A stretch of DNA of 26,869 nucleotides, from the IMG/VR virus record IMGVR_UViG_3300012953_003636, positions 1 to 26,869 of that record; one strand, given 5' to 3'. Under the pieces are notes generated by a model. It had not been told where the DNA came from and did not search any database. It worked only from the letters and a program-made list of their open reading frames with translations. A program made the translations under genes and the position numbers. Numbering within the stretch: position 1 is the first letter of the stretch; every line of letters begins with the position of its first letter. Below, in pieces: positions 2,879 through 22,972 of this stretch. Source of the stretch: a virus (taxonomy: Duplodnaviria; Caudoviricetes).

Positions 2879-2887
2879 GGAGAACAA

Positions 2888-4215: not shown

Positions 4216-4223
4216 GAGTTTTA

Positions 4224-4511: not shown

Positions 4512-6200
4512 ATGGCTAACGCATCAAAAGATAAAGGCATCCTTAACAGGAAAGTATTCTTAGAATCATTAGAGAATAATGGAAAAGTCGCTGATGCTCT
4601 TATAGCTACTGGGGTAACAAGATCTGCTTACGAAAAGTGGAGGCAAAGATTCCCAGACTTTGCTGCAAAAGCTGATGCTATAAGACTCAACTTTCATACT
4701 GAAAAACCTGACAAAGATACACCAGCATTTGAACATTTCAGATCAGAACATTTCGGGCATATGTCTCCTTGGTTTCATTTACGCGCTATAGACGCATACG
4801 AAAACACACCCCCCGGAAATATTACGCTGATTCTTTGGCCACCTGAACACGGTAAAACAACACTTGCTGAAGATTATTTCTGTTACAAACTTGCAACAAA
4901 CCCTGAGTTTCGTATCACAGTAGGTTCAGAAGGACAGGATATGGCTAGGAAAATCCTTGGTCGTATTCGTACTCGTATGGAACCAACTGGTCCATTTCCA
5001 CTATATGTAGCTAAGTATGGTCCTTTTGTTCCACAGAATGCGTCTGGTCGTAAAACTGCTCAAGCGTGGGGAGCAGATTATTTTAATGTATACAAAAAGT
5101 CTGCACATGATGAGCGTGACTATTCGATGGTTTCTTTAGGTTGGCGATCAAAGATTGCTGGTACACGCACCGATCATCTACACATTGATGATATTCAATC
5201 TCGCGTGTCGTTAAATCTAACAGAACAGATGTTCGAGATTTTTCGACAGGACTGGTTAACTCGTCCGGGAGAGAACGGGCGTACAAGTATTAACGGTACT
5301 CGTGTAGGTGAAGATGATTTCTATCAGAGGATTATGACTGAGATAGATGAAGATATTCTTAGAGTGATTCGTTTTCCTGCAATAGTACAAAATGGTGACG
5401 AAGATCCTGAACCTTTGTGGCCTGAGATGTTTTCTATGGAAGCTCTTGACAGGATTAGACGCAAAGTTGGTGAAGAAGCTTGGTCACGTAACTATATGCA
5501 AGAACCTTCAAGTTCTTTAGAAGCTACGTTTGATGATGATTCTATTAAGAAATGTTTAAATCCGTTGCGTTCTACGTTGCATGATCCTCCTAAAGATTGC
5601 ACTGTTTATATTGGTGTTGACCCTGCGTTGGGTGGAATGAATTGTGTTATGGCAGCTACACCGCATGAAGGAAAATTAAAAATACTTTTCTTACAGGAAG
5701 ATCAAGGATTAACTAGAAATGAGCAGATACTTCAGGTAGTAGAAGAAGCAATTTTACGTTGTCAAAAAAATGGTGCAACTGTTTCTGATGTAGTTATAGA
5801 AGCGATGGTGTTCCAAAAAGGGTTGTCTCGTGATGAACGTCTTATAGAAATGACTGAAAGATACGGGTTTAGAGTTAGGGAACATCTAACAGGTATAAAC
5901 AAATATGATGAAACTATTGGGATACCGTCGATGGCTTTATCGTTTATGCGGGGGGAGATAGACATAGCTTACGCTGATGATCCTGTTACTAGGCATCAAG
6001 CTGATGAGCTTATAAGACAGCTTAAATCATGGCGACCTTTGATAAGAGGTACGAAATTGAGGCAAGATAGGGTGATGGCGTTGTGGTTTATATGGATTCT
6101 TTGGAGACAAAGAAAGCAAGCTTTTGCTGTAGACTCTTCACAATTTAACTTTAAAGCGCTACCTTATAATAAGACACGTTCTAAAATTGGAGCTTATTAG
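4512..6200 (+). CDS. terL: Terminase large subunit with N-terminal HTH extension
   Basis: Walker A PPEHGKTT, Walker B HLHIDD, motif III GTR, LWPE...YMQEP segment, RNase H-like nuclease acidic motifs IGVDPA, VVIE and QDRVMAL; immediately upstream of the portal. Confidence 0.93.
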   Translation: MANASKDKGILNRKVFLESLENNGKVADALIATGVTRSAYEKWRQRFPDFAAKADAIRLNFHTEKPDKDTPAFEHFRSEHFGHMSPWFHLRAIDAYENTPPGNITLILWPPEHGKTTLAEDYFCYKLATNPEFRITVGSEGQDMARKILGRIRTRMEPTGPFPLYVAKYGPFVPQNASGRKTAQAWGADYFNVYKKSAHDERDYSMVSLGWRSKIAGTRTDHLHIDDIQSRVSLNLTEQMFEIFRQDWLTRPGENGRTSINGTRVGEDDFYQRIMTEIDEDILRVIRFPAIVQNGDEDPEPLWPEMFSMEALDRIRRKVGEEAWSRNYMQEPSSSLEATFDDDSIKKCLNPLRSTLHDPPKDCTVYIGVDPALGGMNCVMAATPHEGKLKILFLQEDQGLTRNEQILQVVEEAILRCQKNGATVSDVVIEAMVFQKGLSRDERLIEMTERYGFRVREHLTGINKYDETIGIPSMALSFMRGEIDIAYADDPVTRHQADELIRQLKSWRPLIRGTKLRQDRVMALWFIWILWRQRKQAFAVDSSQFNFKALPYNKTRSKIGAY

Positions 6201-8032
6201 TGGCGTATTCTTTTGAGGAAATAGTCGGAATAGTCCGACAGAGACAAGACATTCAGTCACCTTTGTTGTCAAAGATGATTGATATTAAAGATAGGTATAA
6301 CGGTGATTATGTTATACCTCTTCCTTCTATGGACGAAGAACCTGTTCTTCCTCCATTAACTCCGGCTTTAATATCTGAAAACATTGATGCTGTAGCTCAA
6401 AGAGCAGCATCTGTAACCCCATATATAGGTTGCCCTGCTATTGATCCTAGTAAAGAACGTGGTAAAAGATCGAGGCAATATGCTGATATTCGTAAACGTG
6501 CGCTTGCAGCTACGTGGTATCAGAATAAATATAAGTTAAAAATGCGTCGCGCTTACAGACATCTTGCTGGTTACGCGACTACTGCTCTTGTAGTAACACC
6601 AGATTTCAATATGGGTATGCCTAAGATAGAGGTTCGTGATCCTCTTGGTGTTTATCCTGAACCATCTGCGGCTGAGAATTATGATATTCCACGTAACTGT
6701 GCTTTTGTTTATGGCAAATCAGGTGATTGGTTAAGGGCTAACTATCCTGCTTCACGAGATGAGAATGGTGGACCAATAGCATCTGATGAGAATGCACGGC
6801 AAGAGTTATGGGATTGTTGTGAATGGATTGACGAAGAAGATATTGTCATCGGAATAATGGGACCTCGTTATAACCAGTTTAATCAATCGTACCCTTATCA
6901 CAGCACACAGTTAGAATTGTCAAGGTATAAAAATCTTGCTGGTATGCCAGCAGTAATAACTCCGGGTCGTGTCACTTTAGATAAAATTTCTTCTTCAGTA
7001 TCGAACGTCGTTGGGATGGTCGATCTTATGGCAAAACTAATGGCACTTGAAATAATAGCCCAAGAGAAAGCAATCTTCCCAGATCGCTACATCATCGGAC
7101 GTTCAGGACAGGTGCCGATGATAGTAGGAGGTGAGTGGAAAGATGGTAGGGAAGGCGAGGTCAATGTTCTTCTCGACGCAGAACAAATCGGGGAGCTTAG
7201 AGGATCACCTGACCAGAATACGAACATCGTCATCGATAGACTCGAACGTAATGCCAGAGTATCGACAGGTACGGTTCCCCAAATTGGGGGAGAAAGTTAT
7301 GGCGCTCTTCGCACTGGTAGGGGTATTGACGCTCTTATGGGTGCCGCTCTTGATCCAAGGATACAAGAACTTCAAGAGATCATGGAAGGACATCTTCCCC
7401 ATCTCAATGAATGTTTATTCGCCACATATAAAGGATACTTTGGAAGCAAAACGATATCTACATTCACTGGTTATGCAGGCGATTTTGGACAGGTCGAGTT
7501 CACGCCTAACGAACATTTTGAAACGTTCGATAACGTAGTATCTCATTCAGTTCCGGGTGCTGATGTTCAAGGTACAACTATTCAGCTTGGACAGTTGTTG
7601 CAAATGAAAGGTATTAGTCTTTCAACATTTAGAACAAAACATCCGTTTATTGAAGATCCTGAAGCTGAAGGTAGACGAGTTGATGAGGAACAATTAGAAG
7701 AAGCTGTTATGGTTGCTATACAACAGCAAGCTGTTCAAGGCGCGTTGCCTGTAGTCTATATATCTAAAATTGAAAAGCATCGTAAAAAAGGATTTGATAT
7801 TTTTGAAGCTATAGAAAAAGCTGACGAAGAAATTAGAGAAATGCAAGCAGCGCAAGCTCCTCCTCCAGAACCAGAACAAGCTATATCTCCTGAAGAAGCT
7901 ATGGGTCTTGCTGGTCCTCCTCAAGCTTTACCGCCTGAAGCTATGGCACAAGGCGCACCTGCGGCTCCGCAAAATGTGGCACCTGAACAAGCAGTAGCAG
8001 AAATGCAAGCGGCATTAGCAGCAGGTGGCTAA
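6200..8032 (+). CDS. Portal (head-tail connector) protein
   Basis: GTG start overlapping the terL stop; 610 aa; follows terminase; VRDPLGVYP, GE..G..RTGRGI.ALMG and a Gln/Pro/Ala-rich C-terminal tail are typical of podoviral-type portals. Confidence 0.85.
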   Translation: MAYSFEEIVGIVRQRQDIQSPLLSKMIDIKDRYNGDYVIPLPSMDEEPVLPPLTPALISENIDAVAQRAASVTPYIGCPAIDPSKERGKRSRQYADIRKRALAATWYQNKYKLKMRRAYRHLAGYATTALVVTPDFNMGMPKIEVRDPLGVYPEPSAAENYDIPRNCAFVYGKSGDWLRANYPASRDENGGPIASDENARQELWDCCEWIDEEDIVIGIMGPRYNQFNQSYPYHSTQLELSRYKNLAGMPAVITPGRVTLDKISSSVSNVVGMVDLMAKLMALEIIAQEKAIFPDRYIIGRSGQVPMIVGGEWKDGREGEVNVLLDAEQIGELRGSPDQNTNIVIDRLERNARVSTGTVPQIGGESYGALRTGRGIDALMGAALDPRIQELQEIMEGHLPHLNECLFATYKGYFGSKTISTFTGYAGDFGQVEFTPNEHFETFDNVVSHSVPGADVQGTTIQLGQLLQMKGISLSTFRTKHPFIEDPEAEGRRVDEEQLEEAVMVAIQQQAVQGALPVVYISKIEKHRKKGFDIFEAIEKADEEIREMQAAQAPPPEPEQAISPEEAMGLAGPPQALPPEAMAQGAPAAPQNVAPEQAVAEMQAALAAGG

Positions 8033-8493
8033 TGGCAAGAACAGCACCTAAACCTAAAATAGATAAAGCTGGTGGTACACAACCTGCGGCTACTTCTCCT
8101 GACGTTGTTTATGGGCAGGGTCAACAAAACATTGAAGCTCAGAATCAAATAGGTTTACCTGACAATAGAGGAATGCCTACTAATGCTCCTGCATCTCAAC
8201 CTGTTTTGCAAGGGCCACAAGGTATTGTTTCTGCTGGCGCTCCGCAAGCTTCACCTGATGCTTTGGAAGCAGCACGAATGTACAATCCTCAAACGATGGC
8301 TATGAATGCTGCTGACGATGATCCTATTTTAGATATAACTGCTGGTTTGTATAGAACTTTAGATTCTGCACAATTTAGACAAGATCAAAAAGTTACTGCT
8401 GTTAAAAATAGATTACTTGAAGGTTTAGCAGATGCGGAAAGCGAAGTATTACAATCACTAGGTTCGCACATTAAGAGCCGCCAAACACTATGA
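8032..8493 (+). CDS. Small Pro/Gln/Ala-rich protein following the portal (probable virion protein)
   Basis: Coupled to both neighbours (TAATG, ATGA); low-complexity with a YGQGQQ..EAQ motif; function not assignable. Confidence 0.6.
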   Translation: MARTAPKPKIDKAGGTQPAATSPDVVYGQGQQNIEAQNQIGLPDNRGMPTNAPASQPVLQGPQGIVSAGAPQASPDALEAARMYNPQTMAMNAADDDPILDITAGLYRTLDSAQFRQDQKVTAVKNRLLEGLADAESEVLQSLGSHIKSRQTL

Positions 8494-11400
8494 GCGTAGA
8501 AGAAGAAGTCTACGCAGGCGGAGGATCTTCTAGTAGAGGTGGACGTGGAGGACAAAGAAGATCTGTTTCTCCTTCTGGTGGTTCTAATGATGAAGCGCAA
8601 ATTACTTTTAATAGAAGGCTGCAACTTTTATCTGACGCTGGTGCAGGAGGTTTATTCCAATTAGATAACGACCTGTTAAGTGAATTGATTCTTAACACAA
8701 CTATTTCTGATGGAGAAATGCTTCAAAGTTTTTATTCTGCTTTAGATGAAACTCATAAAAATTCAGCAGTCGATTATTTAAAAGGAATGAAAAAAGAATC
8801 GCAACGATTTTTTTGGAATGCTTTACCTGATGCTACGCGAAATGAATTAAATCAATTTGGTTACGAACTGCCTCAAAAAGATAAAATTGATTGGTGGAAT
8901 CCTTGGGATTGGAAAGATTTTTTTGATGAAGAAGTAGGTAGTGAATTTAAAAAAAATGCTTTGTCTTGGTATAACCCAATAGATGCTATTAAACATCCTA
9001 AAAAATATTTTGGAACTGCTGCTAAAACGATAGCTAAAAATCCTTGGCTAGGTGTTACGGCACCTATTTCTTTGATTGGTGCGGCTGGTAGTTATATCCC
9101 ACGAAAAACTATTGAAGGTATTGATTGGTTATTTCATAATGTTGGAGGAAGAGCTAAGAGAGGTTTTGCTGTTGGGATGGACAGTATGACTGGCATTCAT
9201 CCAAATGATTTATTAAAACCTTTTCACGGTGTTGTTAAATATTGGGATAACGCTAAACACGCAGAAACAACATATTCTGATGAAACTATTAATGCTATTA
9301 AAGATCAACTTAATGGTAATGAAACATTATACGAACAGCTTTTATATACCCAAAGATATGGGGATATCTCCGAAGGAATTTTTAGATATTACTTAGATGA
9401 AAATGGTGGAGATCAAATAGACGCACGTAAAAGCATGGAACGATTTTTATCGAGCGGTGTATTAAATTCTACTTCTTGGCGTGGCGCTGAAAGATACGCA
9501 ATGGCAGGAAACATTACTTACGGTGGGCTTCATATGGATGCTTGGGATGATCTTGTTTTGCAAATTCCACCTTATTTTGGTGGTGCTAGACGAGAAGATC
9601 TTTGGGGATTTGAAGGTTTAGAAACTAAAAGACCAGATTCTTTTCAAGGTTACGAAACTGAAGTTTACGATGAAGAAGCTAAAGAATGGGTTAATGGAGA
9701 AAAAATAATAAGAGGTGTGGAATATTATGACAGTCGTCAAGAAGCACTTTCACATGCAAGTAATTTTTATGATTGGAATAGAAAAGCTATAGGAGTAACT
9801 TTTGAAATTATTGGATCTATAACATTTGATCCTACTAATGCCGGTTTAATGAGTATAGCTAAAATTAGACATGCTCGTTCTAGTATAAGAATGGGTAATA
9901 ATTCTACTCTTCAAGGCTATCAAGGCGCAGTTCAAACAGAGCGTGAAGCTGCTTCTGCTATACGAGCGTTAGATGAATTACAAGAAGCTGTTGAAATGGG
10001 AGTTCCTGCTTATAAAGCTGCTAGTGAAGTAGGACAAGGGTCGCGCTTAACTAGAGGTATTTTTAATGGTACTGACGGTTCAAGAAAATCTGTTAAAGGT
10101 GTTCTTAAAACATGGGCAGAAAAATCTGGGGATACTTATTTTAGAAATACTTCTAGATGGAGAAAAGAAGAACTTCGTTCTGAAGGTAGAAAAGTATATC
10201 AAATTAATGAAGCTTTTGCAAAACATGAATTGTGGTTAGTAGAGCAACGAATATTGCAAGCTGCTGGTAAACCTTCTCACGAAACAACAAGTCCTCTTGT
10301 TGAGTTAATTAGAAAAGATCCTCGTTTTGAATCTGTTATAGAAGGTATGGAAAGATGGCATCATCAAAGAAAGACAGCTATTGGTACACAAGATACAGAA
10401 ATAATAGATGTTTTAGATGAAGCTGGAAATGTTATTAAAACAGAAAGAGTTTTTGTTGAACCTACTGATTTTAATATACCTGTAAAAAAACCGGGACTTG
10501 ACGAGTGGGATGGCTGGTGGGATTTTGTAGGTGAACAAGCAGGATATTACACAATGACTGTTGCTTTAAATCAACGTCATCAAAGTAACATAATTTTCCC
10601 ACGTATATCTTGGGGTGGCATATTAAAGAATCGTGCATTTCTTAGCGCTAGAACTTTTATGTCAAAAGGCGACAGTCTACAAGGTTTGCGTGGTGGCATT
10701 TGGGCTGATTCTGTTATGCGGCATGAAGCAATAAGTCAAAGAATGATAGGCGATGCTGTCTATACGCACATTCAAACTGAACCACACTTTAGTAAAGCAT
10801 TAAAAGCAATTACGCATGACGAAATTTGGTCAGCAACAATACGACCACAATATTTTGAAGAGCATGCTAAAAGCCTTGCAAAAAAATGGCAACTATCTGA
10901 CGACGAAGTAGTTGTTTTACAAGAACTTATTACAGCTCAAAGAAATAAAGCAACAAGAAAATTGCATGAAATGTACGATGCAGTAATTTTAAAAGGCGAC
11001 GATCTTGATGATTACATAAAAGCTAATTTTGGTGATCCTGAGTTATCTCAAATTATGAAAGATAACTGGGTGCATATAGATGAATTTTGGCAAACACATT
11101 ACTCTAATCATGGTGTTCCTAAATTTGATAAAGACACAGGACAACTTCTTTTCCCTGCTAATTGGTGGAGAAACTGGGGTCGTCAAGGAAAAGCTTACGC
11201 TGAAAGAAGAAGACGTGGGTTACTTACTAAACCCGGAAGTGTAGAAAATGAACATCTATTAAGATTTCCTAATGAAGTAACTAAGACTACTACTCAAACT
11301 TGGGATGAACTTTATCATGCTGGTATAGATGTAGGTAAAGCACGACACAATTTAAACTCTGCAAAAATTGCAACTCCTGATGAATTAATGCAGTTGTTAG

Positions 11401-14400
11401 AAACTCAAGGAATTAAATGGGTTGCTGAAGAATTAAAAATGTCTGTTAAAGATTTAAAATCTTTTATTAAAAGTGATCTTCATCTTTATTATGTAGAAAA
11501 CAAAATGTACAATGCTGCTGGTAAATTGCGAGATTTTGGGCTTGCAGTTGCTTATCAAACGATGTACAAACCTATGCAATGGACATCGTATTTCTTTAAA
11601 AATGCTCCTCAAAAAAATACTATAAACGTTAATACCGATTTTATGAATAATCATGAAATGGTTGGAGAATTAAAATCATTAGTTGATATGGGAACATTAG
11701 GTGGAGTTCCTACAACTGTAATTGACCAGTACATAAGTCGTTTTCTTTACGGCACAGAAGGTCAACGAATGAATATCATTAATGAATTTTTGTATGATGT
11801 TATGGGTAGATCTGGTGGTTTTGCATACGGAAGAAAAAAAGCTTTAGATATATTTAATGAGTACGCTTTATCTACACAACAAGCTTATTCAAATATAGGA
11901 CAAGATTTATTTTTAGGTAAATCAGGATTAACAGTAGGCGCGATGCTACCTGCTGAAGCTCACGCCGCACAATTAACTAAATTAAAATTAATTCCTGATT
12001 GGCGACAAGTTGGAAGAATGACACAACACATGGGGTTGTTGCGTAATTTAGGATACAGGTTTGGAATTGCTCAACTAGATTTATTTTTCCAAAAATTTTG
12101 GCGACCTAAAGTATTGTTAAAACTTGGTGTAGCTCCAAGAAACTTTTTTGACGAAGCATTACAAATGGGATTACGTCATGGGTTTGGCGCGCAAGTTGAT
12201 ACTCGTTTAGCAATTACTGCGGCGGGAAGAATTTCTCAACGAGATGAATACGGCAGAATATTTGGAGCGCAAGTTGGTGATGTTGCTTGGACTAAAGAAC
12301 AAATAATTAAAGGTGACAGACAAGCTTTATTAAGACAATTAGCTGGTGTTCAACCAGTGGCTCAATCAAATATTGCGTTACTTAAATTCCCTGCCATTGT
12401 TTCAAGAAAATTTTTAGATGTTATGCAAATGGGTAATAAAGCCATTCATAAAAAAGCTGAAAAAGCTGCTATCGCTAGAGAAGGTGGACGTTGGGATAAA
12501 TTACCAAGTGAAGAAAAAGATGCGATTGTTCGTAATGAAATGATAAAACTTTATCAAGAAGAATCTGGGTTTGTTTCAGAAGCAGCTATGCATACACAAT
12601 TTGTTTTAGAATGGAAGCTTCAAGAGATGTTACCTAACGCTCATTTAACAAGTAAATTGTCACCATTTGATCCTGCTATTTCTGACAAAATTGCTGTAGC
12701 TAATAAAATATTAGAAATGCGTGGCGTGTCTGGAGCTAAACAAAGAGAAGGTGTATACCACGCTTTAAACAATCCTGTAGTAATGGAAGCTGTTACAGAA
12801 AGTTTAATGCGCCCTCTAGCGCCTTACATGGATGACGCTAAAGGAACTGATTTAGTAGTAAGACATGGTGGCGATACTCATAATCGAAACATTATGTATC
12901 GACTAGAAATGGATCCTTCAAGAATAGAAACCAAATTTTATACTGAAACTAGAAACAGTAGAGAAAGAGTTGAAGGCGCTTTACAGCAAATGAATTGGAT
13001 GAAAGATGAACCTGCTGCTGTAGAAATGGGAGTTGAACTTGCTCATCATATAGATGAACCTATGAATCTGTTCTTTAGAGATATTGTTCCTCCGGGTTAT
13101 CAAGCTCCTTGGAGGAAAACTGGTAAACCTGCTTTGCCTCAAGGTACTGGAATGCCTCCTCATGTTCCAGATATAGATATTAAAAATGTAGATACTGGAG
13201 TAGGGTCTTCGATTCATCGAGCTACTGACTCGCTTAAAAATGTTGAAGGTAAATTAGAAATTCATTTAGACTTTGGTGTTCTTGCTAAACAGTATAAAGC
13301 TATTTTATTTAATCACAAAAACATAACAAAAGGACCTAATGCTGTTGCTTTAAAAACTCTTGGTTATAATCCTTCTACATTTGTTAAAGGTTTATCAGAG
13401 CTTAATTTAACCGCAGGTCATTCAAGTGTTCCTGAAACTTTTTTAAATGCTTTAAATGTTGAACGCGCAAAAATGGGTATGGCTCCAAAAAAAGCAGGAG
13501 ATGTATTAGAAGAAGCTGAACCTTTTTATTTGTATTCTTTTGAACGTCAGTTAGCTGCTGTTCGTTTACAACATTATGATGATGCTGTTTCAGCTTCTGA
13601 TTTAGTAAAAGCTAATCAAATTGCTTTGCAACAATTAGGTGTTGGTGAATCAGCAGCTCTTTCAAGTAAAGTTCCTCTTGCTCATCCTGTTACTAGAATT
13701 ATTTCTGGCGGTCAATCTGGTGCTGATATAGCTGGTGTTCGTGCGGGTCGTGCGCTTCAAATTGAAACTGGTGGAGTAGCTCCTGTAGGAAAAACCGGCA
13801 AACTTTCTTCTAGTAAAGAAAAAACAAAATACGGAAAATTAGTTACTGATGAAGAAATGAGAGATCTTGGTATAACAGAAGTTGAAGGACCTATACCAGA
13901 AGACGGTGGTAATTGGGGCGAATATTATATGAGGCGGACTAAAGCTAATATAGATGCGTCTGATGGTACTGTTATTTTCACTCAACCAAATTTGCCTAAA
14001 ACAATTAAAGGTAGAGGAGTTTCAGGTACAGAAAGAACAATTAAATATGCTACAGATAAAGCTGATTATCCAGATCCTTTAATATTTAATGCAGAAAAAT
14101 TTACTGATAAAGATAAAACAAGACTTTTAAAATGGTTAAAACGAAATAATATTCAAACACTTAATGTTGCTGGTCCTAGACAACATGTAGTTGAAATGAA
14201 ATGGCAAACAAACAAAAAGAACTCTGTTGTTCTTAGTGGTAAATTTGGCAAAGGTAATATATTTAAAGCAGCAGCAGGAAGTAAATCTAAAACTCTTTTT
14301 GAAGCAGTAGTTAAAGGTGAGCGTAATGCTTTAATAGCTCCTAAATCTACTGAGGTAAGATCTGACACAGTAAGAGGCATGGAACGAGATCCTGAACTAG

Positions 14401-17400
14401 CAAAAGGTGTTAGTCCACTTATAGAAAAAGGTTATAAAAGTGGAGAAGCAAAGATATTACCGATTGATTTAAATCCGGGTCTTTTAGAACGGTTTGGCGA
14501 AGGTGAGTTGCTAACTATAACAAGTGGTAAAGAAAAAGTTTTAGTTCGTGTTATTAGTAAAAAACCTTCTGATGAATACAAAAGTAGAGAGTTAGCTAAA
14601 AAGCTTGGTTATGAATATGATACAAGAACACAAAATTGGGACGAGCTTGCAGTTAGCCATACTGTAATTGAGTTTGAAGTAGTAGCAGAAGATCTTCTTA
14701 AAACTGCTCCAGATTTTGAATCTTCAGTTCAAAAGTTTTTAACTGACTCTTTGTCTGGTGGTGCTAGAACTTATGTACCTCCTGCTCCTACTGCAAGTGG
14801 AATTGATTTACAAAAGAATCTTGAAGCAATAGAAGAATTAGGTGGGCAATTAGATTATTACCCACAATCAATACAAGGAATTACGTTAGATGATGTAGAT
14901 AATGTTGTTGAATGGCAATCACCGTTTGGTGCAAGTAAACCTGAAGTAACTGTTTTAGGTGAAGTAGGAACAGATTATTATTACACGTATCATCATTATC
15001 ATATTGTTGATGAAGGTAAACCAGTTGGTACTGTTCTTCGCTCAAAAGGAAATGGTACAAAAGGAAGCACTAAACATGTATACGTTCAGGGCGGTTGGGA
15101 TCCTGTTATTCAAGATGTTAAAAATCAAGTAGAAGCTATAACTGGTTACGAATTTGATACAGTTATTGTTCAAAAATATGCAAGAGGTAATGTTGATTTA
15201 GGTTTTCATTACGATAAAGAAACAGGAACTTGGCCTGCGCAACCTGAAGCAATTATTGCTTCTGTAAACCTTGGTGCTACAAGAGATTTTGTTTTCAGAC
15301 CACGAACTTATATAGATAAAACTGGTAAACGAGTAGAGTATTCGCGTCAAGCATGGAACAAAACATCTAGAAAAGAAGAACATGTACCGTTTGAATTAAA
15401 CGATAAAGATGTTTTCTTAATGCGTGAAGGCACACAAGATGCTTGGGAACATAGTTTAATGCGACGTAAAGGAAATGTTGGTCCACGTATTAATCTAACA
15501 TTCAGGCGACGTAATCCTGCTATTCAGAAAAAAAGTCGCGGCGACGCAGCAGTTCCATTTAGAGGTGAAGACGTTGCATCTTCAGGATTTACTCCAGCCC
15601 CTCCAAAACCACCAGCATTTGCTCCTGCTTCACCGCCACCACCTGAAGATCCTTCATCACAATTTGCACGAGCTGCATATGACAAAGTAACAGAAATGGG
15701 AGTTCGTTCTCATTTACGAGAATTTTATGAAAACGTACATACTTTTGAACAAGGCACAATGCGTGATGAAGTTAATTTACTTATTAAAAATATTAAAAAA
15801 ACAGTAGGTATAACACCTTCTGAAGAAAAATTTATTAGAGGATTGTTAACTCCTTCAGATAAAAATGTTGGTTACGTTCACAGTAATGCTTTAGCTTGGC
15901 TTGTTAATTACAGAGTTAATCCTGAAGCTTTAGTCGGCGGCAGAGATTTACAACCTATTGTTTCTCGGCAAGTTGATAGAGGAGTAAAAGAGTTTACAAC
16001 TATCTCTGGGCAAGACAGATTAAGATCTTTAAAAGCACATGGCGGTCATCAAGGAGTTATGCTTCCTGTTCCTCCTGATCGAGTAGAAATCTTTTTGCCT
16101 CAAATTAATGGTGATGCTGCATTGCATCTTGGGTATTTATTTGAAGCAGCTCGTGGTCCTATGACTATTGAATTAAGAAACGCTCTTAAAGGATTTCTTG
16201 TTAAAGAATTAGGAACTGACAAATTAGCTATAGATGCTTTAAATATGTTGAACCCTATGAATAATCCTTATGGTTCAACTTTGCCTAGTGCTTGGTTAGA
16301 AAGAAACGTACCTAAAGGCGGAAGTTTTCTTGGACAATTAATAAGTAATAATCCTTCAAATGGTTCTCCGGGAACTTTTGTACCTTTAGGTAGACATACA
16401 GGTGTTCAACAACAGACTGTAATTGGTTTAACAGGATCTCATAATAGTGAACATGCTCAAGCTATTAGTAGAGCAGTAGAAAAATGGAATGAATGGATCT
16501 ATCAAAGCGGTGGACAAATCGGATCACAAATGCTTGATGATGCTTTGAACCCAATGGGACCATTTAAATCTTTGCCTTCTGTTAGACGACTTTATTCTAA
16601 AGGTGAGTATCAAGCAGATATAGGTTTTGGTAGACAATTTGGTTCTTCTCAAGGTATAAATCTTCCGCGAGGTGGGTATGGTCAAGATGTTTCTAGACCA
16701 CCTTCTGTCTATATTGCAGGTGAAGGTTGGGCTGATAAAAAGAGTGTTCCTTTAGGTTGGGTTGAAGAACGAGCTGATGGTGTACCAACTGGTAAATGGA
16801 TTCCAGATGAGACTCCAATGCCTAGCGAATTTGAACCAACTGGTATTATTGGATTAGAAACTGAACTTGAAGCACGTAATATACGTTTTCCTACTACACC
16901 ACAATCCCCTGAAAAACTTGCTACTACTCTTGATAGACGAGAGTATCTTGAAGAAGAAATTATAAATCTTGCACATTCACTACTTTCTTTACCAAGTGGA
17001 TCAAAAGTAACTTATCCGTTTTCTGCAACAGCTTCGTATCAAAGATGGAAAGGCGATTTACCATACTATGACGATTTTGGATTTACTTTAAATAGATTAA
17101 TAAAAATTGTTAACGATCATGGTGCGTCTTCTACTTCTACTATTGCAGATTTAGAACGAGAAATATGGCAAATACTTGGAGATCTTCCAACAGTATCAAA
17201 AGGAATAGCAGACTTGCCGTATATAGGTACTGTAGGTGGGGTAAAACATGATGGTGTTCGTAGAATATTTACTGATTTTGAACCTACAGATCTTGTTCCT
17301 AATTTAGAAATAAAAGGAAACCCTGTAGGTGATATAACACAATTTGATTCTGATATTTTAAAACCGTGGAACATGAGTTATGAAGAAGTTCAATGGATGC

Positions 17401-20400
17401 ACGATGATCCTTCTCTTATAGTAGGTGACACTATAGAACAATTAGCGCAAAGAGACATAGGTTTTGAACAAGATGTCTTCTGGAATTACGCGCGACCTGA
17501 CGAACAATTTTTCCCTGCTGCTGGTTTATCTACAGCAAAACCGGGTGATGTTATACCTCCTCGTGGTGTTATTGGACGTAAAAAAACTCCTGAAACTCAT
17601 GACGCTTTATTCCAAGCTGGTGTTAAAGACGTTGAAGAATACATGATAAATAGAATTAGCGGAATGCCTGAAGAAAAACTTGCAGCATTTTTAAAATGGA
17701 GACAACAACAAATAGATGAAGCAATACAAGCAGGACATGTTGATGCTGTGTGGCCTTTCTTTCGTAATCCTTCTAGCGCTACTTTTGATTATGATGGAGC
17801 AGCTAAAACAATTTTAAGAAATCCTGATCCGCAAGATTATCCTGTTTCGTTTAAAGAAACTGCTAAAGAACTTAAAACTAAAAACATTCCAATCGATGAA
17901 ACCGCCCAACAAAATATGCCTACGAGAACAGCAGCAATAGTTAAAAGTAAATTAAGAACAATAGCTGAATCAGATACACCTAGAGCATTATGGACGTACG
18001 ATAGTGAAAGAGCAGCATCTTTAAGACCAAGTGATATAGGTGGTTTTCATCATGGCATAGATCTTGTAGGTGTAAATCCTAAGAGTGTTGGACCAAATGA
18101 TATTGAAACTGTAATGGATTCACATAATGTGTTTCATGTTTGGGAACATACAAAAACAAAAGATATACACATTCTTCCTGATACTGCTTATAATCCTACT
18201 ACTAAAGAATTAAATATACCTGTCGGTTTTAATCCAAAAGATTATAAATCAATAGGTTCGTTTGAAGCTGGTTCTAACGATATGGCTCAATTTACTAGAG
18301 TCCAAACTGAAAAAATAAAAAATGAAATGAATCATCTTTTAACTACACATGACAGAGTAGAAGCATCTGGAGGCGCACAAGTTAATCATCCTATGTTGCT
18401 TGAGTTAACTGGTTTTCCAAAAGATGCAGCTATGTCAGAAGCGCGATTAGTTACACATAGTAATGATGGATTGTTGCCTCAAAGAATGTTGCATACAATG
18501 CCAGCGGGCGCTCCTAAAACTGGAGCGGGTGGAGCAGTTATGTCTGGTATTAAACATTTAGAAAGAGCTTTCTTTGGTGGTTACATGCATCCTGTTATTA
18601 AAGCAGGTATCCGTGAACCTATGTTCTTGTGGTATTTTTCTGAAACTTGGGCTACTAAATCTTTAGGTATAACTGAATTTTATCAACACAGCGCTAATGC
18701 GTTTAAATTTTTAGAAACAACATTGTTAAAAGAAGTACCTAATTGGTTGCTGCCTAGCAGACTATCGCCACATCATAAAGCTATGCATAACGGAGTAGAA
18801 CAATTTGATATTCCTGAGTTAAGAACCTTTATTGAAACTTTCCGTAATAGAAGAAAAGCTGAAGATGTTACTGCTGTTTTTGCTGACGTAGTAGATGATT
18901 GGATGTCAGGAGTTAAAGACAAAAATCTTTTGTTAGAACAAGTATTTGATCTTCCTAAAGGTGAAGTGCGTATTGGAAATGATTATGGATTGCCCGGAGG
19001 TGGGAATCTTAAAGGTACGCATAGTTTAAGTAAAGCATATGGAAATAATCCTGATGAAGCTTTACGTGATGCTTTAGCAAATAGAAATTATTATGATGTT
19101 GAAATTAATTTTAAAGACAAAGGATTATTCCACAGAGTATTTGCAGGTAACGAAGAACAGTTCTTTCATCTAAAAGAAACATTACCAACAGACGAATACA
19201 ATTTATTTATACGCAGCATAATGGAATGGATGTCGCAACAACTTGCTTCACATCATGCAAGAGTTGATTTTGCAATGCTTGATTCTGCTAAACGAATGAG
19301 TCATTACGTTGACATGCACACAAAACGATCATTCTTTCAAGAGATGGTTGGATCAGCAATACCATTTCATTTTGCTCATTTCCAATTCTTATCAAGATGG
19401 GCAAAAACAATAGAGCATAATCCAGCAGCTATACCAAGATTAAATTGGTTATTGTTTGCTGCTGTACAAACAGGTTACAGATATGAAGATGAACGAACAG
19501 GACAGATGAGACTTAAAATACCTTTCACTGAAACAGGTGTAGGTATTTTCTTAGAAGTAATGAATAGTATTCCTATAGTTCAAAAATTCTTTGGTAGTAA
19601 ATTATTAAGCGTCTTTGAAGATGGTGTAGGGTTCCCTGAAAGATTTATTTTGCCGGGATACGATCCAGATAATTTACTTGAATTTCAACTTGGTCCAATA
19701 CTAGGAATCCCTTTAACAGCAGCATCTCATGTAATTGGTCCACAACTGCTTAATGAAGGTTTACTTGGTGTAGGTGAAAATCTTGTAATGAATAGAACTT
19801 ACGATGAGCCTTTAGTTAATTCAATTTTTGGTCAGCTATTACCTACAACATTTGTTCGACCATTTGCTGCTGTTCTTAATGCTTTTGGTGGTTCTGATAT
19901 AGCTGGACTTTATTCTAAAGCTGAAGCTGACGCAGTTATGATCTTAGGATTAAAAGGAATGTTACCTGACCAAGCTGACATGGCTGGCAGGCCGGGTGAA
20001 GAAGTTTTCAATCAGAATTGGTATGAAGCTATTTCTCATATAGCTAAAGTAAAAATGGTTATGGATATGGTGACATGGCAAATAGTTGGTACGTCATCAC
20101 GTTCAACAATATTGTCATCTGATGCAGCTTGGGAATGGAATGAGTTAATGCAACGAGGTATTGATATGGGTATGCCTCATGAAGAAGCTTTTGAATACAT
20201 GTTGGATCAAGCTAAAGAAGACTTTGATGCTAATTTTGCTATAGAGTATCCAAATATTTCTACAGATGATTCTTTTTATTGGGATGAATGGAATAGAGAA
20301 ATAACTAGAATAGGTACTACTGGCGTAGGCGCAACAGAGAAAATAACAATAGCTGATTTGCCTATGACTGTGGCAGCTTGGGAATGGTTGACAACAGGAG

Positions 20401-21140
20401 ACAATCAAGAATGGGTATTAGCTGCACCTTTAGTTCATTCATTCTTTATTCCAAGAGGATTTACTGAAGAAGAAACATTGTATGCACAGTTTGCAAGAGA
20501 TTGGCAATTAGGTGAAGCGTTACGTTGGGATCGTACAACTGAAGAAATACAAATTGCTATTCAAAGTGTTGCTCCTTCTGTTGAATATTATCAAACAAAA
20601 GAAGCTCATTTAAGACAATTAAATATATTCAGAGAAGCTAGAGACAGTGGTCGTAGAAACGATATAAAACCGGGTGTGTCATGGGCTGATATGATTATGA
20701 TGGAAGAAGAAAGCTGGGATTCATACGATGCAACGTTTAAAGAACGGTATCCTATATGGGCAGAAAATACGTTCGGTTTAGATTCTCAACATAAACGTAA
20801 AGAAACGCTTGATGAAATGCGTCGTTTGTTTACATCAGATAATATTGATGCAATTCCTGACAGCCCACATAAAACCGATATTCTTTCAGGTATGAAATTA
20901 ATTATTAATTTAGATAACGCTTTAATACAATTATCTGGTGTAAGAGGTAGTAATGACAAAGGTGTTAAATGGACATCTATTCGTAATAATCTTATACTTG
21001 ATACATACAACGAATTTAGTGCTTTAGTTGCGGGTAGACCGTGGCTTAACACAATGTTTTATAACTTGCTTTTGCCTTTCATTGGTGAAGATTGGGTAAT
21101 AAAGTTAGAAGAAGGCACATTAGATTTAGGAGTTAATTAA
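8490..21140 (+). CDS. Giant polyvalent internal virion / ejection protein with SLOG, ASCH-like and AlkB domains
   Basis: Uninterrupted 4216-aa ORF in the structural operon. Largely helical backbone with motifs seen in large phage internal proteins (FWRPKVLLKLGVAPRNFFD; IPFHFAHFQFLSRWAK...NP...D..TG....KIPF) and embedded enzyme domains. Confidence 0.8.
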   Translation: MSVEEEVYAGGGSSSRGGRGGQRRSVSPSGGSNDEAQITFNRRLQLLSDAGAGGLFQLDNDLLSELILNTTISDGEMLQSFYSALDETHKNSAVDYLKGMKKESQRFFWNALPDATRNELNQFGYELPQKDKIDWWNPWDWKDFFDEEVGSEFKKNALSWYNPIDAIKHPKKYFGTAAKTIAKNPWLGVTAPISLIGAAGSYIPRKTIEGIDWLFHNVGGRAKRGFAVGMDSMTGIHPNDLLKPFHGVVKYWDNAKHAETTYSDETINAIKDQLNGNETLYEQLLYTQRYGDISEGIFRYYLDENGGDQIDARKSMERFLSSGVLNSTSWRGAERYAMAGNITYGGLHMDAWDDLVLQIPPYFGGARREDLWGFEGLETKRPDSFQGYETEVYDEEAKEWVNGEKIIRGVEYYDSRQEALSHASNFYDWNRKAIGVTFEIIGSITFDPTNAGLMSIAKIRHARSSIRMGNNSTLQGYQGAVQTEREAASAIRALDELQEAVEMGVPAYKAASEVGQGSRLTRGIFNGTDGSRKSVKGVLKTWAEKSGDTYFRNTSRWRKEELRSEGRKVYQINEAFAKHELWLVEQRILQAAGKPSHETTSPLVELIRKDPRFESVIEGMERWHHQRKTAIGTQDTEIIDVLDEAGNVIKTERVFVEPTDFNIPVKKPGLDEWDGWWDFVGEQAGYYTMTVALNQRHQSNIIFPRISWGGILKNRAFLSARTFMSKGDSLQGLRGGIWADSVMRHEAISQRMIGDAVYTHIQTEPHFSKALKAITHDEIWSATIRPQYFEEHAKSLAKKWQLSDDEVVVLQELITAQRNKATRKLHEMYDAVILKGDDLDDYIKANFGDPELSQIMKDNWVHIDEFWQTHYSNHGVPKFDKDTGQLLFPANWWRNWGRQGKAYAERRRRGLLTKPGSVENEHLLRFPNEVTKTTTQTWDELYHAGIDVGKARHNLNSAKIATPDELMQLLETQGIKWVAEELKMSVKDLKSFIKSDLHLYYVENKMYNAAGKLRDFGLAVAYQTMYKPMQWTSYFFKNAPQKNTINVNTDFMNNHEMVGELKSLVDMGTLGGVPTTVIDQYISRFLYGTEGQRMNIINEFLYDVMGRSGGFAYGRKKALDIFNEYALSTQQAYSNIGQDLFLGKSGLTVGAMLPAEAHAAQLTKLKLIPDWRQVGRMTQHMGLLRNLGYRFGIAQLDLFFQKFWRPKVLLKLGVAPRNFFDEALQMGLRHGFGAQVDTRLAITAAGRISQRDEYGRIFGAQVGDVAWTKEQIIKGDRQALLRQLAGVQPVAQSNIALLKFPAIVSRKFLDVMQMGNKAIHKKAEKAAIAREGGRWDKLPSEEKDAIVRNEMIKLYQEESGFVSEAAMHTQFVLEWKLQEMLPNAHLTSKLSPFDPAISDKIAVANKILEMRGVSGAKQREGVYHALNNPVVMEAVTESLMRPLAPYMDDAKGTDLVVRHGGDTHNRNIMYRLEMDPSRIETKFYTETRNSRERVEGALQQMNWMKDEPAAVEMGVELAHHIDEPMNLFFRDIVPPGYQAPWRKTGKPALPQGTGMPPHVPDIDIKNVDTGVGSSIHRATDSLKNVEGKLEIHLDFGVLAKQYKAILFNHKNITKGPNAVALKTLGYNPSTFVKGLSELNLTAGHSSVPETFLNALNVERAKMGMAPKKAGDVLEEAEPFYLYSFERQLAAVRLQHYDDAVSASDLVKANQIALQQLGVGESAALSSKVPLAHPVTRIISGGQSGADIAGVRAGRALQIETGGVAPVGKTGKLSSSKEKTKYGKLVTDEEMRDLGITEVEGPIPEDGGNWGEYYMRRTKANIDASDGTVIFTQPNLPKTIKGRGVSGTERTIKYATDKADYPDPLIFNAEKFTDKDKTRLLKWLKRNNIQTLNVAGPRQHVVEMKWQTNKKNSVVLSGKFGKGNIFKAAAGSKSKTLFEAVVKGERNALIAPKSTEVRSDTVRGMERDPELAKGVSPLIEKGYKSGEAKILPIDLNPGLLERFGEGELLTITSGKEKVLVRVISKKPSDEYKSRELAKKLGYEYDTRTQNWDELAVSHTVIEFEVVAEDLLKTAPDFESSVQKFLTDSLSGGARTYVPPAPTASGIDLQKNLEAIEELGGQLDYYPQSIQGITLDDVDNVVEWQSPFGASKPEVTVLGEVGTDYYYTYHHYHIVDEGKPVGTVLRSKGNGTKGSTKHVYVQGGWDPVIQDVKNQVEAITGYEFDTVIVQKYARGNVDLGFHYDKETGTWPAQPEAIIASVNLGATRDFVFRPRTYIDKTGKRVEYSRQAWNKTSRKEEHVPFELNDKDVFLMREGTQDAWEHSLMRRKGNVGPRINLTFRRRNPAIQKKSRGDAAVPFRGEDVASSGFTPAPPKPPAFAPASPPPPEDPSSQFARAAYDKVTEMGVRSHLREFYENVHTFEQGTMRDEVNLLIKNIKKTVGITPSEEKFIRGLLTPSDKNVGYVHSNALAWLVNYRVNPEALVGGRDLQPIVSRQVDRGVKEFTTISGQDRLRSLKAHGGHQGVMLPVPPDRVEIFLPQINGDAALHLGYLFEAARGPMTIELRNALKGFLVKELGTDKLAIDALNMLNPMNNPYGSTLPSAWLERNVPKGGSFLGQLISNNPSNGSPGTFVPLGRHTGVQQQTVIGLTGSHNSEHAQAISRAVEKWNEWIYQSGGQIGSQMLDDALNPMGPFKSLPSVRRLYSKGEYQADIGFGRQFGSSQGINLPRGGYGQDVSRPPSVYIAGEGWADKKSVPLGWVEERADGVPTGKWIPDETPMPSEFEPTGIIGLETELEARNIRFPTTPQSPEKLATTLDRREYLEEEIINLAHSLLSLPSGSKVTYPFSATASYQRWKGDLPYYDDFGFTLNRLIKIVNDHGASSTSTIADLEREIWQILGDLPTVSKGIADLPYIGTVGGVKHDGVRRIFTDFEPTDLVPNLEIKGNPVGDITQFDSDILKPWNMSYEEVQWMHDDPSLIVGDTIEQLAQRDIGFEQDVFWNYARPDEQFFPAAGLSTAKPGDVIPPRGVIGRKKTPETHDALFQAGVKDVEEYMINRISGMPEEKLAAFLKWRQQQIDEAIQAGHVDAVWPFFRNPSSATFDYDGAAKTILRNPDPQDYPVSFKETAKELKTKNIPIDETAQQNMPTRTAAIVKSKLRTIAESDTPRALWTYDSERAASLRPSDIGGFHHGIDLVGVNPKSVGPNDIETVMDSHNVFHVWEHTKTKDIHILPDTAYNPTTKELNIPVGFNPKDYKSIGSFEAGSNDMAQFTRVQTEKIKNEMNHLLTTHDRVEASGGAQVNHPMLLELTGFPKDAAMSEARLVTHSNDGLLPQRMLHTMPAGAPKTGAGGAVMSGIKHLERAFFGGYMHPVIKAGIREPMFLWYFSETWATKSLGITEFYQHSANAFKFLETTLLKEVPNWLLPSRLSPHHKAMHNGVEQFDIPELRTFIETFRNRRKAEDVTAVFADVVDDWMSGVKDKNLLLEQVFDLPKGEVRIGNDYGLPGGGNLKGTHSLSKAYGNNPDEALRDALANRNYYDVEINFKDKGLFHRVFAGNEEQFFHLKETLPTDEYNLFIRSIMEWMSQQLASHHARVDFAMLDSAKRMSHYVDMHTKRSFFQEMVGSAIPFHFAHFQFLSRWAKTIEHNPAAIPRLNWLLFAAVQTGYRYEDERTGQMRLKIPFTETGVGIFLEVMNSIPIVQKFFGSKLLSVFEDGVGFPERFILPGYDPDNLLEFQLGPILGIPLTAASHVIGPQLLNEGLLGVGENLVMNRTYDEPLVNSIFGQLLPTTFVRPFAAVLNAFGGSDIAGLYSKAEADAVMILGLKGMLPDQADMAGRPGEEVFNQNWYEAISHIAKVKMVMDMVTWQIVGTSSRSTILSSDAAWEWNELMQRGIDMGMPHEEAFEYMLDQAKEDFDANFAIEYPNISTDDSFYWDEWNREITRIGTTGVGATEKITIADLPMTVAAWEWLTTGDNQEWVLAAPLVHSFFIPRGFTEEETLYAQFARDWQLGEALRWDRTTEEIQIAIQSVAPSVEYYQTKEAHLRQLNIFREARDSGRRNDIKPGVSWADMIMMEEESWDSYDATFKERYPIWAENTFGLDSQHKRKETLDEMRRLFTSDNIDAIPDSPHKTDILSGMKLIINLDNALIQLSGVRGSNDKGVKWTSIRNNLILDTYNEFSALVAGRPWLNTMFYNLLLPFIGEDWVIKLEEGTLDLGVN
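13692..14753 (+). other. cpYpsA-type SLOG domain within the giant protein (interrupted by an insertion)
   Basis: RIISGGQSGADIAGVRAG.....TGGVAP, Y.RRTKANIDASDGTVIF, SGTERTIKYA and WLKRNNIQTLNVAGPR match the circularly permuted YpsA (formerly putative molybdenum carrier) family; the probable final helix PDFESSVQKFLTDSL is at 14709-14753. Confidence 0.85.
14283..14685 (+). other. ASCH/PUA-like domain within the giant protein
   Basis: FEAVVKGERNA resembles ASCH F..I..G.K/R.; followed by GEGELLTI....KVLVRVIS, a LAKKLGY helix and a terminal VIEFEVV strand. Confidence 0.55.
14850..15512 (+). other. AlkB-family 2OG-Fe(II) dioxygenase domain within the giant protein
   Basis: W.P....VK..VE..TG..FD.V.V..Y, HxD (GFHYDKE, H at 15207), IASVNLGATRDFVFR, L.....FLM...TQ..WEH (H at 15450) and PRINLTFR (Rx5R at 15486-15506): full ALKBH2/3-like motif order. 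Confidence 0.92.
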
Positions 21141-21142
21141 AC

Positions 21143-22972
21143 ATGCCACCAGATGATTTAGATGAATTTACTCCAAATGAGGGGAGTGTTCCTTCTGGCG
21201 CTCCTGAACCAGATAATCCTTGGGAAATAGAACAACCTAATTTTACAGGTGGTGGTGTTAATACACAAGAAGCTGCTTCTTTATCTACAATAATTCAAGC
21301 ACCAGATAAACTTCATCATATTTATTTAGCTAACAGTGACCCTGCAACTTCTTTTACTAGAATGATTAATGTTCTTTTAGATAACTATATTTATTATGTA
21401 ACATTTAGTGGCAACGCTCCTTTGCCTGCTGATTCAATATATGGGGCTGTTGATCCTTTAGGTTTAAGTGGACAGTTTGGTGAAATTATGGGAGCAGGAG
21501 GAGTAGAGGGACGTACTCCTATGACTGTTGAAGTTGTTGAAATAAATTCTGTAGGCGGACAAGAGCTTTTAAGAAATTATCATGCAGCTAATGGGGATGG
21601 TGGCGGAGAAAAAAATAGAACATACGAACAATTAAACGACGAAGAAAAAGCTAAAGTAGATGCACATATAACTGGTACTTATGCTGGACATGAGTTTATG
21701 TTTTTAGCACCAGAAGATGAGGGTGCTACTTTTAGAGATCCATTAAATCTTAATTTGTATGATGATCCTGAAACAGATGTGAATGAAGGTGTGCAAATTC
21801 CTATGATAGGTATTGTTCCTTCTTATGATGGAACGAACATGGGATACATTTCAACAATAGAAGAAATGATGATGGGTGTACCGTTAGATCAAAAAAGTTT
21901 AGATTACTATATGCGTAATTTAGAAACAAAAAGCCCTGATATGTTTCGTGCAGTTCAAGGACAGCTTTCTGCTTTAGGATATTACAACACTGATTCTGGT
22001 GGACCAGAATGGGGTTACTCTAGGAATAGAGACAGGCAAGCGTTTCGTAGTTTTATGGCTGACATTATTACTGAACGTGTAAGAGTAGAGGATTACAACA
22101 GAAAGAATCCTAACAGCCCAATTTCTATGGCTAGGGTAGGAGAGTATTTAGATAAAAGATTTTTTTCTAATATTGAAGCTAACAGCGCTAAATGGGGTGT
22201 AGGCGTTACAAAAGATGCAGATGGTAATACTATTTCTATGTCTCCAATGAGAGGTTTACAAAACGATGTGCAATCAGAAATTGTAAATACATTAAATAAT
22301 TTGTGGAATGGTACAGGCAGGCAAGTCGGTGACAGAGAACAAGACATAATAGAAAAAGCATTTAATGAATTGTATGTTGCAGGTGACATTGATCCTACTG
22401 AATATAAAACAGAAGGGTTTACTGATTTAATGGGGTTAGCTGATTCTTTTGGTGCTGAATATTATGGCGGTCAAGAAGGATGGGAAAATAATATACGGAT
22501 AGGAATTGGTGGTAATCGAAACGAGTTTTTGCGTATGGCAAGAGCTGCTGGTGTGCCAATAAATGTTGACGAAGCTCCTACTGCTCAACAACGTAAAGAT
22601 ATTTATAGATGGAATTTTATTACTTTGTTAAATAAAAACAATGGTAACTTTGAAGCAGCAAGTAATGAATTTGCTAATACTTTTGGCGCTCAAACATTTA
22701 GAAATCAAGAATATAATTCTGATTGGTTAAGAAATGTAATTTCAAATGCTCAAACTCCTACATCATTTGGTCATGTAGCCGGGGCTAAAACAATGCTTGA
22801 GCAAGACGAACTACGGTTAGGTGCTTTAGACGATATAACTAAACGTGTTCAAGTTGCTTCTGGTTTTGGTAATGAAAAATCTGGTATGGCTAGGAAAGCA
22901 GCTAACGATGTGCTTGCAGCTTTTGCTTCTGTAGGGAAAGGTAATCAAAGAGACAGAGGTACTAGAATATGA
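21143..22972 (+). CDS. Putative internal virion protein with a peptidoglycan-binding-like motif
   Basis: GGAG upstream. Acidic 609-aa protein; VQGQLSALGYY.....WG.....RQAFRSF (about 21950-22056) resembles the three-helix PG_binding_1 pattern. Confidence 0.55.
   Translation: MPPDDLDEFTPNEGSVPSGAPEPDNPWEIEQPNFTGGGVNTQEAASLSTIIQAPDKLHHIYLANSDPATSFTRMINVLLDNYIYYVTFSGNAPLPADSIYGAVDPLGLSGQFGEIMGAGGVEGRTPMTVEVVEINSVGGQELLRNYHAANGDGGGEKNRTYEQLNDEEKAKVDAHITGTYAGHEFMFLAPEDEGATFRDPLNLNLYDDPETDVNEGVQIPMIGIVPSYDGTNMGYISTIEEMMMGVPLDQKSLDYYMRNLETKSPDMFRAVQGQLSALGYYNTDSGGPEWGYSRNRDRQAFRSFMADIITERVRVEDYNRKNPNSPISMARVGEYLDKRFFSNIEANSAKWGVGVTKDADGNTISMSPMRGLQNDVQSEIVNTLNNLWNGTGRQVGDREQDIIEKAFNELYVAGDIDPTEYKTEGFTDLMGLADSFGAEYYGGQEGWENNIRIGIGGNRNEFLRMARAAGVPINVDEAPTAQQRKDIYRWNFITLLNKNNGNFEAASNEFANTFGAQTFRNQEYNSDWLRNVISNAQTPTSFGHVAGAKTMLEQDELRLGALDDITKRVQVASGFGNEKSGMARKAANDVLAAFASVGKGNQRDRGTRI

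Follow-up and report, generated by a model that had tools for sequence, protein, structure and literature searches.

The stretch of viral DNA analysed here, positions 1 to 26,869 of the IMG/VR record IMGVR_UViG_3300012953_003636 (Caudoviricetes; hereafter the window), encodes a cysteine-free protein of 4216 amino acids (aa) that, judged from its sequence and gene neighbourhood, probably serves a short-tailed phage as its large ejection protein. In its middle this giant protein holds a block of cargo with a cpYpsA-type SLOG domain, an ASCH domain and an AlkB dioxygenase, and all three domains are real. Comparison of orthologs shows that this block varies as an insertion within a conserved backbone, and low synonymous divergence in it points to exchange by recombination. 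A function like that of phage polyvalent proteins, in early repair or counter-defence, is likely, and on balance we lean towards an ejection protein whose exchangeable cargo would regain its fold in the host cytoplasm and be active there before phage gene expression. The parts of the giant open reading frame (ORF) are as follows:

8490..21140, plus strand: giant protein, 4216 aa, ~473 kDa, cysteine-free; likely ejection protein with enzyme cargo and likely ortholog of Beephvirinae gp09
8490..13079, plus strand: N-terminal backbone (aa1-1530), in 36/36 orthologs
13086..13169, plus strand: Pro-rich linker 1, left cargo border
13212..13655, plus strand: zincin-like domain, HExxH lost in the window (alignment with HExxH-bearing domains)
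13686..14183, plus strand: cpYpsA SLOG core (Pfam PF12694, E 1.7e-16; GGQ.G.D, RT..N and LN.AG.R motifs intact)
14184..14693, plus strand: predicted ASCH/PUA-fold domain nested in SLOG, motif-degenerate and likely non-catalytic (hidden Markov model [HMM] and structure search)
14709..14759, plus strand: final cpYpsA helix, displaced by the ASCH insertion (comparison with uninterrupted copies)
14796..15521, plus strand: AlkB 2-oxoglutarate-Fe(II) dioxygenase, ALKBH2/3-like (H2240, D2242, H2321, R2333 and R2339 intact)
15567..15584, plus strand: empty variable slot, filled in close relatives by a NADAR, DUF7831 or ART-like domain
15585..15653, plus strand: Pro-rich linker 2, right cargo border (Pro-rich stretch at 15594)
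15657..19166, plus strand: middle backbone, common mainly to the nearer clade; other cargo sites of relatives lie within or after it
19167..21137, plus strand: C-terminal backbone, in 36/36 orthologs

A reading made from the letters of this DNA before any database search (the sequence-only reading) had placed SLOG, ASCH-like and AlkB domains inside the 4216-aa ORF and had them bounded by Pro-rich linkers; both proposals were borne out. Pfam locates cpYpsA at aa1737-1898 with 60.7 bits against a curated cut-off of 26.2, and 2OG-FeII_Oxy_2 at aa2186-2339 (E 8e-21), likewise above its curated cut-off. The solved structures nearest to the AlkB domain are ALKBH2 (E 1e-13) and ALKBH3 (E 2e-9); the HxD...H metal triad and the R-x5-R 2-oxoglutarate motif are intact in each of 17 aligned AlkB copies, and the lid region carries insertions. 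The linkers, found at 13086 and 15594, are the two most Pro-rich 30-aa segments of the entire protein, containing 11 and 8 prolines, respectively, with the next best segment reaching 6.

The ASCH domain was identified by structure search. Pfam gave no ASCH match to this region of the window, and a DUF1823 match there fell below the cut-off and was disregarded. The Pfam ASCH family matches the copies of five relatives weakly (E 0.003-0.1, below cut-off), and an HMM built from the relatives' ASCH copies detects that of the window. When an AlphaFold model of aa1899-2072 (mean predicted local distance difference test score 63, from a 13-row alignment) was used as the query of a structure search, the first rows were YqfB (Z 8.3, root-mean-square deviation [rmsd] 2.9, 93 aligned residues) and EF3133 (Z 8.1, rmsd 3.4, 114 aligned residues), and we take rows 1-8 to be ASCH-type proteins. 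Foldseek against the PDB with the same model left the top names unchanged, but none reached E<=0.001; the ESM Atlas gave no match at 0.9 for this region (low recognition), and the ASCH profile had no significant match among PDB sequences. As modelled, aa1899-2072 adopts the PUA-like ASCH fold.

In uninterrupted SLOG copies, the final helix begins no more than ~20 residues after the NVAG.R motif, while in the window it comes ~175 residues later; the ASCH domain is thus inserted in SLOG ahead of its last helix. The protein P0003 has the same nesting, but with a canonical ASCH domain. We assume that the G-x-K/R-T-x-T-x-R motif and a downstream Glu of ASCH correspond to the catalytic residues of YqfB. 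In all four ASCH copies of the window's clade this motif is interrupted and the Glu replaced by Leu; the Glu is retained in the other 9 of the 13 alignment rows. Because of these two changes, the window's ASCH domain is likely a nucleic-acid-binding module rather than an enzyme. The domain calls of the sequence-only reading withstood profile and structure searches, SLOG and AlkB by Pfam and ASCH by structure, with the qualification that the family motifs of the window's ASCH copy are lost.

A fourth mobile domain, ahead of SLOG at aa1575-1722, may be described as zincin-like from the HExxH motif of its relatives and weak library matches. Of 16 homologous domains, five retain HExxH (P0003, where it sits at the same position, L103, L105, P0183 and P0184). 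Peptidase_M48 of Pfam matches an intact copy at E 0.017, below cut-off, and the lead from the Atlas, ImmA/IrrE, scored 0.87, under 0.9.

The 36 orthologs, some of them near-duplicates, range from 2439 to 4494 aa and all possess the N and C backbones; their modules were counted with HMMs built on these same proteins. Sixteen lack any of the seven cargo modules. Among the 20 cargo-bearing proteins, SLOG is present in 20 (14 cpYpsA, 6 YAcAr), AlkB in 16, ASCH in 16, NADAR in 14, DUF7831 in 12 and ART in 2. Both the order of the cargo and its insertion site vary between clades, and in P0182, the nearest cargo-free relative, the N backbone is joined directly to what corresponds to the window's aa2409 onwards. 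The ortholog comparison therefore upheld the proposal of a cassette that varies while the backbone around it is conserved. The notion of SLOG, ASCH and AlkB as a set trio had to be given up: SLOG alone is constant (20/20), four of the 20 lack AlkB, and NADAR and DUF7831 belong to the cargo no less typically than ASCH does. For the same reasons, the emphasis that had been placed on base modification stands in part; AlkB is intact, but ADP-ribose/NAD chemistry is probably at least as central as base dealkylation.

Exchange seems to reach down to single slots of the block. The slot after AlkB occurs in four states among close relatives (empty, DUF7831, NADAR, ART-like), and within two clusters of 90% identity NADAR and DUF7831 alternate in it. 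The occupant in P0226 (aa ~2415-2650) is an ART-like domain, identified by motif and with no Pfam match. Domains are also nested in one another: L082:10945-11304 and P0180 aa2321-2441 hold a complete canonical ASCH domain inside a loop of an AlkB domain whose catalytic residues are retained, and in L096, L097 and L100 (giant ORF aa ~2970-3490) NADAR is interrupted by SLOG, either alone or together with ASCH; L097 and L100 have an ART-like domain too. Most of the AlkB-bearing orthologs, though not every one, have an ASCH-like stretch ahead of AlkB. The stretch after the YAcAr SLOG at L110:8082-8489 (minus strand) resembles by eye another degenerate ASCH domain and was negative with HMM and Pfam. 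Compared with the near-identical P0003, both P0158 and P0167 have ~110 extra residues near aa3450, a further insertion site beside the C backbone.

In a quick tree of the backbone, with long branches, cargo sits in two separate clades, each of which has cargo-free neighbours. Between L083 and L084, synonymous divergence (dS) is 0.13-0.31 in the cargo block and 1.01-1.08 in the backbone, and pairwise comparisons with the window shift in the same direction. This low dS of the block is therefore read as pointing to block exchange by recombination. In four pairwise comparisons, nonsynonymous divergence (dN) stays below dS for all segments, including the degenerate ASCH and zincin-like domains.

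We hold with good confidence that the giant protein is an ejected virion protein, an assignment that draws on relatives and on composition. The Beephvirinae (Streptomyces cluster BF) are podoviruses without a tape measure (PMC13097060). Their gene order agrees with that of the window: a portal gene, small genes, the gene for the 1648-aa gp09 and four genes, the last of which matches the window's last ORF. The N backbone aligns with Beephvirinae gp09 at an hhalign probability of 91.7 (E 7.8e-7), and the C backbone gives a weak profile match to it (probability 30.7, E 5e-4); a comparison of the C-terminal backbone with annotated phages yielded no match. A scan of 29 ORFs, not all, of a complete 48.6-kb relative returned capsid, fibre and lysin matches and no tape measure, sheath or RNA polymerase match.

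Cysteine is conspicuously rare in the whole region. The six-gene block at 8032-26791 has 0 cysteines in 6250 aa, and the genes upstream have 20 in 2653 aa; in the giant protein alone ~32 would be expected. The 36 orthologs together contain 7 in 126,777 aa, and the corresponding block of Streptomyces BF phages (gp07, gp09-gp13) has one in 3304 residues. Cysteine suppression has been described for the ejection operons of Schitoviridae (PMC11445570), and by analogy the cysteine-free six-gene block likely marks an ejection operon. The cargo itself conforms to this pattern. While 102 of 109 short cpYpsA homologs contain cysteine, the cysteine content of cpYpsA drops from 1.37% in short homologs to 0.11% when it lies in 27 proteins of at least 1500 aa; because cpYpsA is cysteine-poor in giant proteins, the cargo seems to follow the route of the scaffold. 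Weak histone and designed-helix matches of the backbone profiles in the PDB were judged compositional. The contigs of the orthologs L126 (45.9 kb) and L125 share bins with one genome each of Ilumatobacteraceae and Dehalococcoidia, a possible host clue or a mis-binning; together with the Beephvirinae link, this binning allows the guess of an actinobacterial host.

From these data the following course of events can be proposed. The giant protein would be a late product that is packaged in the head; it would leave the particle as an unfolded chain, either together with the DNA or before it, as unfolding during ejection has been proposed for the crAss001 cargo (PMC10172136), and its cargo would refold beside the entering DNA. 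There, SLOG might bind or cleave NAD- or ADP-ribose-derived alarm molecules, with help from NADAR, DUF7831 or ART-like domains in relatives. NADAR, where present, could reverse the ADP-ribosylation of DNA; NADAR-type counter-defence of phages against DarTG1 has been reported (10.1101/2024.07.11.602962). AlkB, with Fe(II), 2-oxoglutarate and oxygen from the host, may remove methyl groups or related adducts from the incoming DNA or the earliest transcripts; AlkB is sporadic in phages and has been considered as possibly resetting methyl marks (jumbo-phage review, PMC7824862). The degenerate ASCH domain would act as a nucleic-acid anchor, not as an enzyme. The block and its single slots would be exchanged by recombination via conserved linker DNA, which would likely tune the kit to the defences of the host.

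Several observations weigh against this picture. Among the orthologs, Pfam puts cpYpsA, AlkB and DUF7831 above cut-off, and ASCH, YAcAr, ART and most NADAR copies below it. The closest pair, L082 and L083, shows no dS drop in the block. That SLOG acts on ADP-ribose-derived signals has been predicted in print (PMC9503650, section 3.4.4). Proteins outside the putative ejection block can lack cysteine as well, as do the capsid protein of Immanuel3 and a 310-aa protein of G006. Furthermore, no 19-residue segment of the giant protein reaches a hydropathy threshold of 1.3, and the backbone profiles matched no solved ejection protein in the PDB.

The alternative that survives best, and that we still regard as unlikely, accepts ejection and sees in the cargo a device for plain damage repair: AlkB and ASCH would repair alkylation or etheno damage that the packaged DNA had picked up outside the cell, and no host defence would be targeted. 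It is favoured by the ALKBH2/3-like character of AlkB, a type that corresponds to bacterial group 1B, whose members are active in DNA repair (PMC2790896), and by the position of an ASCH or ASCH-like domain just before AlkB in the window's clade, L101, L102 and L109-L112, or inside it in L082 and P0180. However, P0183-P0185 have AlkB but no detected ASCH, and the constant part of the cargo is SLOG, not AlkB (16/20). The NADAR, DUF7831 and ART-like domains swap fast, which is a better fit to an arms race than to steady chemical damage.

Slightly less probable still is a convenience fusion without co-injection, in which the cargo acts late or is removed ahead of packaging, perhaps by the zincin where its motif is intact. 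Self-processing by such peptidases has been proposed for polyvalent proteins (PMC5512222), the zincin-like domain keeps HExxH in 5 of the 16 orthologs having it, and 473 kDa is big for a head of this class. Against this stand the dead zincin motif of the window and the cargo's own freedom from cysteine, although 102 of 109 short cpYpsA homologs have this residue, so that the cargo seems to be on the scaffold's route. We consider it improbable that the block is neutral baggage, that is, mobile domains that landed in a tolerant loop and then decayed. Two of the window's four domains are motif-degenerate and 16 of 36 orthologs manage without cargo, but the AlkB and SLOG motifs are intact, dN<dS holds even for the two degenerate domains, and the block appears to spread across diverged backbones. 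Virion RNA polymerases of the kind found in N4 or crAss-like phages, equipped with accessory domains, would be similar in size and lack of cysteine, yet it is very improbable that the giant protein is one: it was rejected as a polymerase on motif, DxDGD and DFDxD being absent from it and not conserved among the 36 orthologs, and Pfam and PHROGs gave no polymerase family match, a result at the sequence level only.

Beyond the preferred interpretation as an ejection protein with counter-defence or early-repair cargo, a bolder one may be offered, which we think doubtful as a whole. A shared pool of SLOG, ASCH, AlkB, NADAR, DUF7831 and ART domains might move, through recombination and the insertion of one domain in another, between unrelated ejected scaffolds (this protein, crAss polymerases, P0007). 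ASCH and AlkB would form a reader-eraser pair for a base modification that the host, by way of an undescribed defence system, puts on phage DNA or RNA as it enters, and SLOG with NADAR would undo ADP-ribose attacks.

A counter-defence brought in as protein is at work ahead of all phage gene expression, and to our knowledge few enzymes delivered in this manner are known. The present family offers a natural experiment, with one scaffold found both with and without cargo and a single slot that closely related phages show in four states. It opens cpYpsA, DUF7831 and a phage ASCH subfamily to experiment, and gp09 of Streptomyces BF phages, as a cultured, cargo-free likely ortholog, allows a test of packaging. 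It also raises the question of which methyl-type mark a virion-borne AlkB would remove.

The genes around the giant ORF are the following:

4512..6200, plus strand: terminase large subunit (phrog_38, E 2.8e-49)
6200..8032, plus strand: portal protein (phrog_104, E 8.5e-8; matches Immanuel3 gp03)
8032..8493, plus strand: 153-aa ORF without cysteine, first gene of the likely ejection block (ORF list)
21143..26791, plus strand: four more cysteine-free ORFs (609, 431, 369 and 472 aa), likely the remainder of the ejection operon

The closest annotated relatives of the terminase are those of Streptomyces Beephvirinae phages, at ~25-27% identity. The 153-aa ORF has no family match in Pfam or PHROGs. 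The last of the four ORFs after the giant gene matches Immanuel3 gp13 (E 4e-14), and for two of the others there are weak matches to gp11 (peptidase) and gp12 (glycosylase) of this phage, all E values being computed among 9 proteins. Within the fibre gene block, a 338-aa ORF (3199-4215) consists of ~30-residue Ala/Ser/Ile-rich repeats, is higher in GC and has no family match. An Rfam scan of the window found no family, and no tRNA was found in the complete 48.6-kb relative. The sequence-only reading had allowed for the cargo region being an assembly chimera. This was excluded: aa1-1155 and 1161-4216 of the giant protein recur at 100% identity on other contigs, and 7 of the 10 members of its cluster, from several sources, measure 4202-4216 aa.

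Compared with known systems, the giant protein resembles the phage polyvalent proteins (Iyer et al. 2017, PMC5512222) as a large multidomain chain of unrelated activities, with its gene close to portal and terminase in the late virion region, variable in architecture among relatives and provided with a zincin-like domain. Two relatives have a weak ART-PolyVal match (L097, E 0.0098, below cut-off). It differs in that its domains are nested in one another and that the zincin motif is dead in the window. The main text of PMC5512222 never names AlkB, 2OG, ASCH, SLOG, YpsA or NADAR; conversely, Pfam detected no MuF, LPD, SNF2, methylase or PBECR domain here, and in the window protein none of the 2017 polyvalent hallmarks (MPTase, MuF, LPDs, ART, SNF2-methylase).

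A second likeness is to viral NAD+/ADP-ribose counter-defence (SLOG, NADAR and Macro; Iyer et al. 2022, PMC9503650), where YpsA-like SLOG occurs with NADAR near morphogenesis genes and, for both, packaging in the virion and degradation of ADP-ribose-derived signals have been predicted. The examples given there are typically standalone proteins, mostly of myoviruses or large genomes, whereas here the domains lie inside a scaffold of podovirus-like phages of 45-50 kb; AlkB and ASCH are absent from the main text of that paper. The sequence-only reading had seen in the cassette the best candidate for an undescribed system. That claim has to be toned down, since the polyvalent concept (PMC5512222) and virion-packaged SLOG/NADAR counter-defence (PMC9503650) have already been proposed in print; the novel aspects are a scaffold that is not a polymerase, the nested domains and the exchange measured between relatives. 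A literature search found no paper on this combination; its coverage lay outside supplements, which may list such architectures.

Like the ejection proteins of podoviruses (T7 gp16, N4 gp50, DEV gp71 and the crAss001 cargo), the giant protein is very large and cysteine-free and lies in a cysteine-free operon (PMC10172136, PMC11445570); it shows no sequence match to any that have been solved and no RNA polymerase motif, and its enzyme cargo is optional. With Beephvirinae gp09, annotated as hypothetical, it shares gene position, profile matches of the N and C backbones and freedom from cysteine, but gp09 is 2.5 times shorter and no cargo module was detected in it. The AlkB domain agrees with group 1B and ALKBH2-3 in its intact catalytic residues and departs from them by being embedded in a 4216-aa protein, by its lid insertions and, in L082 and P0180, by the whole ASCH domain in a loop.

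Members of the kit are found on other scaffolds as well. Among the best 150 matches, cpYpsA occurs in 27 proteins of at least 1500 aa. The cysteine-free P0007 (1965 aa) combines SLOG, ASCH, AlkB, NADAR and DUF7831 with an ART-like stretch and has no detectable match to the giant protein's backbone or to the window's other ORFs. The same ASCH subfamily is present near the end of gp23 of crAss phage cr272_1 (L120:1827-20987; 6386 aa, 37 in-frame TAG codons). In IAS virus, gp055 (L121:11209-13722) contains cpYpsA and directly precedes RNA polymerase genes, and P0149 (4720 aa) carries a helicase, a PD-(D/E)XK nuclease, ASCH, NADAR and cpYpsA, which adds one more scaffold for the kit. The giant protein of the window is likely a variation of the polyvalent-protein theme on a scaffold that is not a polymerase and is likely ejected.

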